Below are positions 49,412-52,026 of a stretch of 64,000 nucleotides of DNA, piece by piece (within the stretch, counting starts at the first letter, position 1; each line of letters opens with the position of its first letter). Position numbers and translations under genes: made by a program. The stretch spans positions 202,109 through 266,108 of the forward strand of contig CAWDXF010000004.1 in NCBI GenBank assembly GCA_963806205.1, read 5' to 3'. The DNA is from an uncultured Microthrixaceae bacterium (lineage in GTDB: Bacteria > Actinomycetota > Acidimicrobiia > Acidimicrobiales > VFJN01). Under the pieces are notes generated by a model. That model was not told the origin of the DNA and searched no databases. It worked only from the letters and a program-made list of their open reading frames with translations.

Positions 49412-49858
49412 TCAGCAGGTGTCGTGTCGCCACTCGCCATCTTCGACGATCCAGTCCGCGGAGGTCTCGCTGTTCTGGGTCTCGCCCTCCTTGGGCGACT
49501 CGATGATGCTCACCTCCGCCTCGAGAGCGTCGCTCCCTGGCCTGTCTACGACCACGCTCAGGATGGTGGGCGGCCCGCCGATGGCCTTGGTCCAGTCCTC
49601 GGAGAACCGGTCGAACACCGATCGGGTCGTCTGCGCTCTGCATCGCTCGGACAGGAGGTCGTCGGCGCGTGCACCGTCGCCGCCGTTGAAGGCCGACTCG
49701 AACTGGCGGGCCGAGCGCTCGAGGGCCGCTGTCGAGGGAGGCTCGCGCAACGGCTCGTCGTCGCCGCTGTCGCCCGCACAGCCCGCGACCAGGAACGCGC
49801 CGACCATCAGGGCTCCTGCCGTACGGCTGACCCGAGCGTGTCGGAGGGCCGACGTCAC
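49412..49858 (-). CDS. Putative lipoprotein (NTF2-like domain)
   Basis: LVAGC lipobox; LLSERCR...WIVEDGEWRHDTC; alternative start ATG 49807 with AGGAG RBS. Confidence 0.7.
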   Translation of the reverse strand: MTSALRHARVSRTAGALMVGAFLVAGCAGDSGDDEPLREPPSTAALERSARQFESAFNGGDGARADDLLSERCRAQTTRSVFDRFSEDWTKAIGGPPTILSVVVDRPGSDALEAEVSIIESPKEGETQNSETSADWIVEDGEWRHDTC

Positions 49859-49859
49859 C
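49836..49859 (-). repeat. Degenerate copy of the tRNA-Leu 3' end (att-like site 1)
   Basis: GCGTGTCGGAGGGCCGACGTCACC vs 51940-51963: first 13 nt identical, 19/24 overall. Confidence 0.65.
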
Positions 49860-49895
49860 AGTCCCCGAGTGGCGGCTCGCGGTCACGTCCGAGAC

Positions 49896-50288
49896 TCAGC
49901 GAAGCTTCGTGGCGATCTCCCCACTGTCCAGATAGTCCCGCCAGCTGACGATCTTGCTTGCGGCATCGAACTCAATGACTCCCACGACGTGGAGGCCGAT
50001 GCGCTTGCCCCGCAGGGTCACCCAGTCGATGCGCTGAATGAACACGGTGTCGCCAACAGAAGCCGTGTGAAGGAAGTCGAAGCCGCAGTCCTCCATGCGG
50101 GGGGCCTGTCGACTCAGTTCGGCTCGAATCGCGTCGTGGCCGATATGCGGCTCCTCCCAGGCGAACACGTGGTAGGCGCCATCTGGCGCGAAGCGGTCCA
50201 CGATCCGATCGATCTGCGCGGCATCCAGTCTCGGACCCTCGAACTCCCGCAGAAGCTCCCGGGCCGCCGTCTCGTGCGCCGTGGTCAT
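49896..50288 (-). CDS. Limonene-1,2-epoxide hydrolase family protein
   Basis: GHDAIRA, VFIQRID, VVGVIEF...KIVSWRDYLD. Confidence 0.85.
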   Translation of the reverse strand: MTTAHETAARELLREFEGPRLDAAQIDRIVDRFAPDGAYHVFAWEEPHIGHDAIRAELSRQAPRMEDCGFDFLHTASVGDTVFIQRIDWVTLRGKRIGLHVVGVIEFDAASKIVSWRDYLDSGEIATKLR

Positions 50289-50301
50289 TCGCCGGTTCCT
50301 C

Positions 50302-50718
50302 CTACCCGAGCAGCCCGAGCTGCTGCATCTGGGTGAGCGTGTCTCCGATACCCCATCGTTCTACGACCTGGCCGTGGTCGAAGCGCAGGATGCCGATCGA
50401 GCGGATGTCGATCTTGCGGCCCGTCGGCGGAATCCCCATCAGGTCACCGTCGTGCGTCCCGGTGATCCGCGCGTAGCCAACCGCCCGCTCGCCATCGGCG
50501 ACGACGAACTCCGCCTGCTCGTGATAGTCGGAGAAGGCGTCGTGCATCAGGTGGAGAGACCCCACGTACCGCTCGAATCCGGACCCTTCGAGGGGCAGCT
50601 GATCGATGTGGTCGACCAGGTCGGCGGAGATCAGCTCGTCGACGAGTTTGTAGCGCCGTCGGCACCACAGCTCCTCCGTCACCATTCGGTAGAGACTCGC
50701 CGGATCGCTGTCCGCCAC
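50302..50718 (-). CDS. SnoaL-like ester cyclase
   Basis: DAFSD, TGTHDGDLMGIPPTGRKI, GQVVERW...QQLG. Confidence 0.9.
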   Translation of the reverse strand: MADSDPASLYRMVTEELWCRRRYKLVDELISADLVDHIDQLPLEGSGFERYVGSLHLMHDAFSDYHEQAEFVVADGERAVGYARITGTHDGDLMGIPPTGRKIDIRSIGILRFDHGQVVERWGIGDTLTQMQQLGLLG

Positions 50719-50763
50719 GACCCGAGTGTCTCACGGTCGCCGGGGGCCGGCCGAAGCGGCGAT

Positions 50764-50785
50764 GTGCCGGAGGACCGACTTCAAC
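50764..50785 (-). repeat. Degenerate copy of the tRNA-Leu 3' end (att-like site 2)
   Basis: GTGCCGGAGGACCGACTTCAAC: 17/22 to the tRNA end (51942-51963), 18/22 to site 1; intergenic. Confidence 0.6.
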
Positions 50786-50888
50786 AATCGACACTCCGGC
50801 CGGGCAGCTCATGACCTGGTCTTGTGAGCGCTGACCGTGTTGATCGGTCAACATGCGGCTGTCGTCGTCATCGCGTCGGAGGAAGCCA

Positions 50889-51353
50889 GTGGACGAACCA
50901 GGTAGCGGAGCGGGGCCAGCGGCGGGAATCCCCGCCTACATCGTCGTTGACACTCAGGACCCGGGGAAGATCACACCGTTTTGGTGCGCGCTGCTCGGTG
51001 TCGGAGTGTTCCAAGACCGCGACAACGGCAAGTACGTCACGTTGGAGCCGTCGCCGAAGCTGCCTGGGTCCATGATGTTGACGTTTCAGCATGTGCCCGA
51101 ACCCAAAGCAGCGAAGAACCGGGTCCACGTCGACGTGTTCGTCTTTGACCTCGACGAGGCAACCGCTCAGGTCGAGGCGCTCGGCGGGCAGTGGGCCGAG
51201 CCGAAGGTGACGCTGCAGGACGGCAGCTGGATCTCGCGAATCGCGGTTGACCCTGAGGGCAACGAGTTCTGCATCTGCTTGGCACCATCGAGGATGAAGG
51301 CTTGGCGAGCAAGTACCGACGAGACGGTGGTACACAACCCAGGCAAGTACTGA
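50889..51353 (+). CDS. VOC/glyoxalase family protein
   Basis: FWCALLG, FQHVPEPK.AKNRVHVD, DPEGNEFC; GGAGGA RBS before GTG 50889. Confidence 0.9.
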   Translation: MDEPGSGAGPAAGIPAYIVVDTQDPGKITPFWCALLGVGVFQDRDNGKYVTLEPSPKLPGSMMLTFQHVPEPKAAKNRVHVDVFVFDLDEATAQVEALGGQWAEPKVTLQDGSWISRIAVDPEGNEFCICLAPSRMKAWRASTDETVVHNPGKY

Positions 51354-51450
51354 CGCAGCTGGGCGTGAGCTCTCCGGTCACTTCGCGTCGCTAGGCGAGA
51401 GAACGTGAGCCATGAACGAGAAAGGTGGCTCCATTGGAGTCACCTTCCGA

Positions 51451-51463
51451 GTGTCGGAGGACC
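51451..51463 (-). repeat. Short copy of the tRNA-Leu 3' end (att-like site 3)
   Basis: GTGTCGGAGGACC: 10 nt identical to the tRNA end, 12/13 to site 2; lies before the likely ATG of the next gene. Confidence 0.45.
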
Positions 51464-51508
51464 AAACCGCAGGTTCTCGTACCGGCCACTGGCGGCTCGG
51501 ACCGTGAC

Positions 51509-51835
51509 ATGCTTGCCCGCGTGGCGGCGTCCTACGACGAGTTCGCAGCTGAGCACCGGGCCGAGCATGGCTCCGCCTTCATTCGATGGGCGACCGTCGC
51601 CGGCAACTACTCGAACATCCCCACCGCAATCGCTCTGCTCGTGGGTCGACCGCGGGCCGCTGCTGCGATCTTCGGGATCGGGACGGCAGCCCTTGTGGTG
51701 GGCCACGCCGTGGAGGGCAACCTCCCCCGGGCGGGCCGCGACCTTGCACGCCATCCGATCTGGAGTGTGCGAGCCGATGTTGCGGTGGCCAACGAGACAC
51801 TGAGGGCAGCCCTGGCTCCTTCTCGGGCGATCTAG
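51509..51835 (+). CDS. DUF962/Mpo1-like small membrane protein
   Basis: SYDEF...EH...RW; VGHAVEGNLP...HPIWSVRAD. Confidence 0.7.
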   Translation: MLARVAASYDEFAAEHRAEHGSAFIRWATVAGNYSNIPTAIALLVGRPRAAAAIFGIGTAALVVGHAVEGNLPRAGRDLARHPIWSVRADVAVANETLRAALAPSRAI

Positions 51836-51874
51836 CGGCGCAGGAGGCCCACAGATCGCCCCAGAACGCAGAAC

Positions 51875-51893
51875 GCCCGGCACTGGGCCGGGC
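51875..51893 (-). terminator. Hairpin 3' of tRNA-Leu (possible terminator)
   Basis: GCCCGGC-actgg-GCCGGGC followed by GTTCTGCGTTCT on the minus strand. Confidence 0.5.
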
Positions 51894-51942
51894 TTCGAAC
51901 GGTTCATCTCCGCCGCTTTCGACTGAACCGGGCCTGACTGCG

Positions 51943-52026
51943 TGTCGGAGGGGGGACTTGAACCCCCACGTCCTTGCGGACACTAGGCCCTCAACCTAGC
52001 GCGTCTGCCAATTCCGCCACTCCGAC
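51943..52026 (-). tRNA. tRNA-Leu (anticodon GAG); CCA not encoded
   Basis: GTCGGAG acceptor stem, TGGCGGAATTGGCAGACGCG D-arm, CTAGG-TTGAGGG-CCTAG anticodon arm, long variable arm, GGGGGTTCAAGTCCCCC T-arm. Confidence 0.97.

Follow-up and report, generated by a model that had tools for sequence, protein, structure and literature searches.

How could three small groups of accessory genes come to lie in a row behind a tRNA gene when no integrase accompanies them? The question is raised by a 64,000-nt stretch of DNA from an uncultured Microthrixaceae bacterium (contig CAWDXF010000004.1 of assembly GCA_963806205.1), hereafter the window, in which the 3' end of a tRNA-Leu(GAG) gene recurs three times (sites S1, S2 and S3) within 2.1 kb. 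The window corresponds to C4:202109-266108 of the analysed assembly (G000; 3.58 Mb, 73% GC, 86% complete). A preliminary description, made from the letters alone, had proposed an array of one- or two-gene cassettes captured in succession at the tRNA by one family of tyrosine integrases acting in trans, as in an integron, or, as its alternative, heavily eroded larger islands. Our analysis supports the three sites as scars of attachment junctions, left at tRNA-Leu by successive insertions that involved a single integrase family, which appears to be of the serine rather than the tyrosine type.

Three copies of the tRNA-Leu(GAG) 3' end and the units between them

The three copies, all in the same orientation, were as described: S1 agrees with the tRNA 3' end at 19 of 24 nt from position 49836 (13 nt exact), S2 at 17 of 22 nt (50764), and S3 over 10 exact nt (51451). 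They stand at gene boundaries and bound small units, which measure 926, 687 and 491 bp (Table 1). The lower GC content that had been noticed by eye was also borne out, since the array has 65.2% GC, the 0.64th percentile of 2.1-kb windows. GC at third codon positions (GC3) was at or below the 2.3rd percentile for all four cargo genes. A foreign origin of the units is supported.

Genome-wide, S1, S2 and S3 ranked first, second and third in a scan with a DNA matrix that had been trained on 24 arms of other organisms and is partly circular in its first 13 positions. The 13-nt motif common to the sites, which was defined after the fact, has four copies in the 3.58-Mb genome, three of them in the array. 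For at least three occurrences of GTGYCGGAGG on one strand in 2.1 kb, the Poisson chance is 3.4e-6. Among 59 tRNA/tmRNA calls in the genome, tRNA-Leu(GAG) is the only one whose last 10 nt recur twice without mismatch within 3 kb; for four others there is one such copy. Short-read contigs of run X1, possibly the source sample, match S1 and S2 letter for letter, so these two sites are not long-read errors. Four contigs of other organisms in runs X2/X3 match the S1 arm only, beginning at the core start or no more than 4 nt from it. The strict site pattern was found in 3 of 401 genomes of the order and in 44 stretches of a genome-contig collection, most of the latter without a tRNA and likely due to chance.

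The same locus was compared in related genomes (given here by G numbers, further loci by L numbers). tRNA-Leu(GAG) was present in 52 of 80 family genomes; four contig-end loci were left out and 48 were compared. Past the tRNA, the flanking DNA changes in nearly every relative compared. Downstream of the tRNA, 16 extra cores in the same orientation occur over 352 kb, the other strand has 3, and none occurs in the 173 kb of upstream DNA; 11 of the 39 family genomes with at least 2 kb of flank, including G000, have one or more. The C-terminus of a large serine recombinase (LSR), as a whole gene or a stub, adjoins the core in 14 of 46 tRNA-Leu(GAG) junctions of the host family, most without the whole gene, and stacking across LSR families was seen in L262 and L247. 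Together, these junctions and stacks indicate that erosion and accretion are common at tRNA-Leu.

The arms beyond the cores and a family of serine recombinases

In three relatives (G003, G015 and G060), an open reading frame with an LSR domain runs into the tRNA end and terminates in ...RVGGGT. L086 has an element of 4.3 kb between an S1-type site and the tRNA; it encodes a hydrolase, a Rep and an LSR of a second type (P0001), which is about 23% identical to the first. A metagenome scan returned 191 stretches encoding P0001 relatives, of which the best 80 were analysed. The LSR gene ended in the tRNA core in 63 of the 64 related loci with the C-terminus present; past the core, these 63 continued in a tRNA-type arm (42), an S1-type arm (16) or other arms (5). 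The linked LSRs, with Resolvase, Recombinase and zinc-ribbon domains, occur in relatives only.

Eleven complete elements were hand-picked for junction geometry, one of them (L171) doubtful. The ninth and tenth core bases were identical at both junctions in 11 of 11, being GA in five (GA-type tRNAs) and GG in six (GG-type). The two ends of these elements mirror each other about this central pair at 9.9 of the outer 17 nt, compared to 4.7 at random. Serine attachment (att) sites are described, in the available text of PMC11722253, as a central dinucleotide with two motif pairs. The mirror symmetry about a shared central pair fits this geometry.

The far arms, read in the LSR frame, encode a conserved tail, roughly VG(G/E)PTSP..(D/E)WR..PW. 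In the same frame S1 reads VGGPTSPVPEWRL, S2 reads AGGPTSTIDT and S3 reads VGGPNRRFSYRPLA. The last ~12-20 LSR codons of related elements are encoded at the element's other end, adjoining the cargo slot. Since the arms translate as an LSR tail, the substitutions that had been noted at the sites and that the tRNA lacks are integrase codons; their presence stood, and they agree with the arm and C-terminal tail of an LSR family. The element attachment site (attP) would accordingly lie inside the LSR gene, and integration would sever the tail.

The agreement differs between the sites. S1 is identical to the far-end arm of the complete LSR element L110 at 33 of 40 nt. The outer arm motif was matched at 9 of 11 positions in S1 and 8 of 11 in S3 (p=0.002), with the same spacing in both, and at only 4 of 11 in S2. 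By a tail-peptide score on the residues beyond the core, S1, S2 and S3 ranked 1, 2 and 5 of 150 genome core matches, S3 being the weakest. A core match at 12090 in the window came fourth by the DNA matrix (20.1 vs 20.5 bits) and third by the tail peptide. It has a GA centre and the same orientation as the sites; the DNA around it is poorly coding, and the tRNA is 40 kb away. This match is probably due to chance, and may otherwise be an old scar.

Complete helpers, i.e., elements with their own recombinase, measure 3.2-5.7 kb and comprise a tail arm, a cargo slot, a conserved gene of ~110 aa, Rep, LSR and two conserved non-coding segments. The complete elements carry an arm of the S1-S3 type at the far end. 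Their Rep genes matched REP_ORF2-G2P in L086 (Pfam), Rep_trans weakly in L110, and Replic_Relax in L106. The ~110-aa protein shared by the helpers L098-L177 (e.g., L147:1138-1488 and L153:901-1015) has no Pfam match and may act as a directionality factor or as a regulator. These helpers also have in common a 24-nt segment that hardly varies and a long hairpin, which are candidate replication origins. No FtsK/Tra gene was evident in the maps of 10 complete helpers, in which the gene finder missed genes and not all of which were Pfam-scanned. A plasmid collection yielded only distant recombinases with partial matches of at most 35% identity.

Other arrays were found in relatives. G022 has a three-site array of its own (853, 1226 and 1670 bp) with unrelated cargo, and L089/L094/L095 have at least 8 sites over ~25 kb with two left-arm types; this array is the best candidate seen for true two-ended cassettes. 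S1-type sites adjoin tRNA-Leu in L059, L069, L071, L083, L086 and L090. Small units without an integrase lie beside a helper in L141/L143 (complete) and in L158 and L177 (cut by the contig end). Insertion sequences were also observed by the core, with genes within ~60-140 nt of it: integrase-core transposases in L090 and L086, and an IS21-like one in L056. An identical sequence resembling an insertion sequence end abuts the core in L090, G001 and G015. Such insertion sequences could drive deletions that remove the LSR.

Searches for the enzyme and for the units elsewhere

No cognate integrase is present in the window, as had been stated, and none was found in the genome, with the reservation that the assembly is 86% complete. 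G000 gave no match to PF07508, PF00239, the LSR profile, Rep, the small gene or the conserved cis segments. PF00589 had three matches in G000, none in the window; two were full-length in housekeeping surroundings and one was a 53-aa fragment. The two full-length proteins resemble XerC and XerD.

The DNA of the array was used to search 61 genomes, and only gene-level or tRNA matches and one S1-arm match were recovered. At E<=1e-8, none of 150 other genomes of the order matched the unit 3 protein. For the unit 1 hydrolase, 8 of 79 genomes gave matches (33-41% identity), in no case with a core closer than 1.5 kb, and viral contigs gave none. When 25 units were compared by blastn with the array loci gathered, ends were shared and no cargo was shared between different hosts. 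No unit recurred with the same cargo and ends in the loci or genomes searched; single-protein searches covered the unit 1 hydrolase and the unit 3 protein.

Right ends of the units and position of the host terminator

A matrix of the second attP half (P arm) was applied to the right ends of units 1, 2 and 3 and gave p = 0.70, 0.58 and 0.46, and no LSR stub was detected in any of them. The symmetry of each unit's own ends was 6, 3 and 5 of 17, the random level. A marginal exception is the right end of unit 1, one of 14 units tested, which matches the outer motif at 7 of 11 positions at the attP spacing (p=0.014). Four small relatives (G037, L069, L083 and L090) consist of an arm, cargo and an LSR stub and show an end symmetry of 9.0 of 17, compared to a mean of 4.5 (random, 4.8) in 14 hand-picked units with neither stub nor LSR, all three array units included. 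Cassettes of an LSR should carry the second attP half at the right end; the 14 no-stub units are without it, so that an integron-like reading is weakened. A right end of 52-57 nt is common to three L089/L094 units and a short right end to three G022 units; no autonomous LSR with a right end of the G022/L094 type was found among 8 viral matches.

A hairpin typical of the genus occurs once each in G000, G006 and G018 (3 of 80 family genomes), always at the tRNA-Leu locus. In G006 it stands at the distal junction, where a host terminator displaced by insertion would be expected; in G000 it adjoins the tRNA, with S1-S3 beyond it. The gap between hairpin and tRNA (window 51894-51941) is ~41 nt longer than in G006 and holds a 7-bp inverted repeat as well as an apparent duplication of the hairpin's arm. 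Terminator hairpins as a general feature of right ends were not supported: one of 13 no-stub unit ends tested reached z <=-2, and no U-tail terminator was called at unit 2. In the tRNA-Leu flanks of G044 and G460, right ends close with a palindrome-like motif directly at the core; the motif resembles an actinobacterial SOS box.

Origin of the array

The data are best read as a stack of three insertions at tRNA-Leu(GAG), each of which would then have lost its Rep-LSR part and left a tail and cargo that are singly non-excisable. We consider this origin probable. The target, the LSR family by association, the att geometry in relatives, a tail at each site, and the lack of a second arm or a helper in the assembly are directly seen. 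The excised circle would hold attP inside the recombinase gene, and crossover at the central GG of the core would restore the tRNA on integration and sever the LSR tail. The Rep and recombinase part would be lost later, through deletion or through excision of a neighbouring helper, with tail and cargo staying behind. Under standard serine-integrase chemistry, one attP half would not allow a single unit to excise by itself; its departure would at most be possible jointly with a new helper inserted at the tRNA. Deletion intermediates, in which the arm and an LSR stub are kept, are G037, L069, L083 and L090. The eroded islands named as an alternative in the preliminary description are nearer to the data than its cassettes. 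Of its first proposal, successive captures at tRNA-Leu by one integrase family held, the tyrosine type did not, and integron-like action in trans was not shown and was weakened.

Several points weigh against this origin. An LSR stub is lacking in units 1-3 and in 14 of 18 hand-picked integrase-less units of the S1 arm type, a loss that random deletion would explain poorly. If insertions were simply nested, the host terminator would be expected on the far side of S1, but the hairpin is found within unit 3, beside the tRNA. The units of G022 and of L089/L094 have common right-end sequences of their own, and other LSR right-arm subfamilies may be unsampled. S3 keeps a small doubt, as its match is weak and the unrelated-looking site at 12090 scores as well. 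Low-cover contigs of runs X1-X3 had no joint at the sites and no excision, circle or strain difference, their cover being too low to inform on excision.

The no-stub units and the inner terminator would fit better with a cycle in which the units are sub-kb cassettes made of a tail arm, one or two genes and a host-type (attB-like) right end. Such cassettes would travel with an adjacent, small Rep-plus-LSR helper into another host, integrate there with it and stay when the helper excises by its ordinary reaction, its exit regenerating a clean tRNA target, and the array would grow in an integron-like manner by serine chemistry with no resident enzyme. The cycle would account for the missing stubs and P arms and the terminator inside unit 3, and the compact layout agrees with it, in which 58 nt separate gene and core in units 1 and 3. 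Helpers with small units next to them do exist in L141/L143 and L158, and tandem co-transfer of a cis-mobilizable element (CIME) and an integrative and conjugative element (ICE) is reported in streptococci in the available text of PMC5704250. However, neither the loci fetched nor the genome searches gave a second copy of any unit with its cargo and ends, hairpins are not general at right ends, and the cycle does not account for how the first such cassette arose. We regard this cycle as possible, though unlikely. Less likely still, and doubtful, are two-armed non-autonomous elements, CIME-like or mobilized in trans, whose right arm came from an unsampled LSR subfamily or has drifted. The 7 of 11 motif match at the right end of unit 1, the common right ends in L089/L094 and G022, and the existence of stub elements with both arms agree with them; yet the right ends of the three units resemble neither each other nor the sampled P arms, their symmetry is at the random level, and no LSR, Rep or cis-site of the element was found in the genome.

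The version first proposed, in which a tyrosine integrase would act in trans on cassettes like those of an integron, has in its favour that tyrosine enzymes are the usual ones to target tRNA genes (available text of PMC4383910) and that some relatives carry longer tRNA fragments of the tyrosine type. The arms, however, match LSR tails with serine-type symmetry, the identity block is only 10-13 nt, no attC-like fold was found at the sites, and the only full tyrosine recombinases of the genome look like XerC/XerD. The LSR association largely refutes a tyrosine enzyme, and we consider this version very improbable. Integron-like cassettes as such were not shown and are weakened, the units having no second attP half at the right end and no attC-like fold, and none of them having turned up as a whole elsewhere in the loci and genomes searched. 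Chance matches in GC-rich DNA could be argued from the 9-nt core, which has 70 copies in the genome, one at 50998 inside the VOC gene, and from the 12090 match that comes near S3 in score. Against chance stand the clustering of the sites (p=3.4e-6), matches that reach past the core into arms from other organisms, and the recurrence of the pattern at tRNA-Leu in relatives; by these comparisons chance is refuted for S1 and S2, with a small doubt left for S3, and as an account of the whole array it is hardly credible.

Comparison with known systems

Integrons and clusters of attC sites lacking integron integrases (CALINs) are arrays of small one- or two-gene accessory units with recombination sites between them. 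No IntI-type tyrosine recombinase was found beside the array or in the genome (86% complete). Folds like attC were rejected at the sites, with fold z from +0.07 to -1.95 over both strands and no shared structure. Integron cassettes are co-oriented, whereas the genes of the array are mixed (unit 1 minus, units 2 and 3 plus), and the array sites, unlike those of integrons, read as double-stranded serine att hybrids.

By analogy, the array works like the ssrA stacks of Dehalococcoides (PMC3146451) and like CIME accretion (PMC5704250), as far as the available parts of these papers describe them. The ssrA islands have a serine integrase, DsiB, with the gene's 3' end overlapping att/attL (McMurdie 2011, PMC3146451). 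They lie in tandem, bounded by repeats of the target 3' end and a conserved adjacent motif, and 15 without an integration module are proposed CIMEs (PMC3146451). The likeness extends to the 3' end of a serine integrase gene within att (63 of 64 related LSR loci here) and to tandem and module-less islands. The ssrA islands have tmRNA as their target, a 20-bp repeat, a six-gene module and large size (PMC3146451); the array differs in its tRNA-Leu acceptor stem target, 10-nt identity block, helper of 3-6 kb (small gene, Rep and LSR) and units below 1 kb.

In CIME accretion, an element decays to an integrase-less remnant, new insertions at the target gene's end follow, and cis-mobilization is possible (PMC5704250). 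The array is alike in that its units hold cargo genes only, with integration and transfer genes gone. A CIME by definition keeps both attL and attR (PMC5704250), whereas the array units keep one attP half; where a CIME would have its right P arm, units 2 and 3 show background and unit 1 is marginal. The examples of CIME, ICE and integrative mobilizable element (IME) accretion in the available text are tyrosine-integrase systems of Firmicutes (PMC5704250).

Serine recombinases of actinobacterial integrative and conjugative elements (AICEs) of Mycobacterium integrate in tRNA-Leu and are called rare (Ghinet 2011, PMC3218068). These AICEs are conjugative, and att structure, a split gene and small remnants are not described in the available text of that paper; they are likened to the array LSRs by description only. 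For Islander, an island end is marked by a displaced 3' fragment of the tRNA with unchanged orientation; tandem arrays are known, and its available text states that serine recombinases were not known to target tRNA genes in 2015 (PMC4383910). Island calls by Islander and TIGER need an integrase and at least 2 kb (PMC4383910, PMC12424338), according to the same parts of the sources, so the array units, of 0.49-0.93 kb and without an integrase, fall outside them. No description of a Rep-plus-LSR helper family or of sub-kb units was found in the literature searched, subscription journals and supplements being outside its scope.

Accessory genes in units below 2 kb or without an integrase are thus invisible to island catalogues (PMC12424338), and serine integrases that target tRNA genes were previously called rare (PMC3218068) or unknown (PMC4383910) in the texts available. 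The helpers define a compact and widespread element family, a relative being encoded by the 191 metagenome stretches. Its attP can be read from the sequence, inside the integrase gene and aimed at the conserved tRNA-Leu end, which makes it a candidate tool for integration in Acidimicrobiia and in further Actinomycetota that have been little studied. If helpers do come and go and leave cassettes behind, hosts would have an integron-like route to collect single genes; if they do not, the locus is an orderly graveyard of small islands.

Features and surroundings of the locus

Table 1. Coordinates in the window of the sites, units, genes and hairpins at the tRNA-Leu(GAG) locus
Feature	Position	Strand	Length	Description
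Junction S1	49838-49895	+		10-nt tRNA-end core, then P' arm / putatively severed LSR tail, reads VGGPTSPVPEWRLAVT; putative crossover GG 49846-49847
Unit 1	49846-50773		926 bp	A pair of SnoaL-fold genes without an integrase; no clear P arm at right end
Limonene-epoxide-hydrolase / SnoaL_2-like gene	49896-50288	minus		PF12680, PF07858; stop 58 nt from S1 core
SnoaL-like (ester cyclase) gene	50302-50718	minus		PF07366, E 1e-24
Junction S2	50764-50820	+		Core with one mismatch and drifted LSR tail (AGGPTSTIDT...W)
Unit 2	50772-51460		687 bp	Single VOC/glyoxalase gene; right end a hairpin, no P arm
VOC / glyoxalase-like gene	50853-51353	+		Glyoxalase_6 PF18029, E 3.5e-22; start codon uncertain
Stem-loop, candidate terminator	51422-51446			Unit 2 right end; z -2.1 vs shuffles; no U-tail terminator called
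Junction S3	51451-51508	+		Core and LSR tail of L149/L153 subtype (VGGPNRRFSYRPLA)
Unit 3	51459-51951		491 bp	One Mpo1/DUF962-like gene and terminator-like hairpin common to two congeners
Mpo1-like (DUF962-like) gene	51509-51835	+		PF06127, E 5.7e-4, below its cut-off; ATG 58 nt from S3 core
GC-rich hairpin, candidate tRNA terminator	51865-51893			Pattern in 3/80 family genomes
tRNA-Leu(GAG)	51942-52026	minus		Insertion target; putative crossover 51950-51951; core ends LSR genes in relatives

Synteny between G006 and the window picks up again only near 39.5 kb, and the array is therefore the tRNA-side end of a 12-kb variable region. This region runs ~10 kb past S1 (39500-49800) and has genes for P450, PadR, cupin, SRPBCC and AAA kinase proteins, several with atypical GC3. 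The matrix scan gave no att site above 6.3 bits on the plus strand between 38 and 49.8 kb. An imperfect palindrome of ~50 nt at 49322-49374, which resembles a repetitive extragenic palindrome or a miniature inverted-repeat transposable element, has 7 other copies in the genome at 73-88% identity, one of them just upstream of tRNA-Met (C2:840784), and also matches in G006 and G041. On the other side, upstream of the tRNA (window 52000-60000), genes of an oligopeptide ABC transporter have many frameshifts, likely long-read assembly errors. A pair of tRNA-Met genes lies elsewhere in G000 (C2:840900-849600), together with a displaced 3' fragment of tRNA-Met (848595) and a tyrosine integrase that is truncated (849379); by this content, the stretch appears to be a second eroded island, of the tyrosine type.

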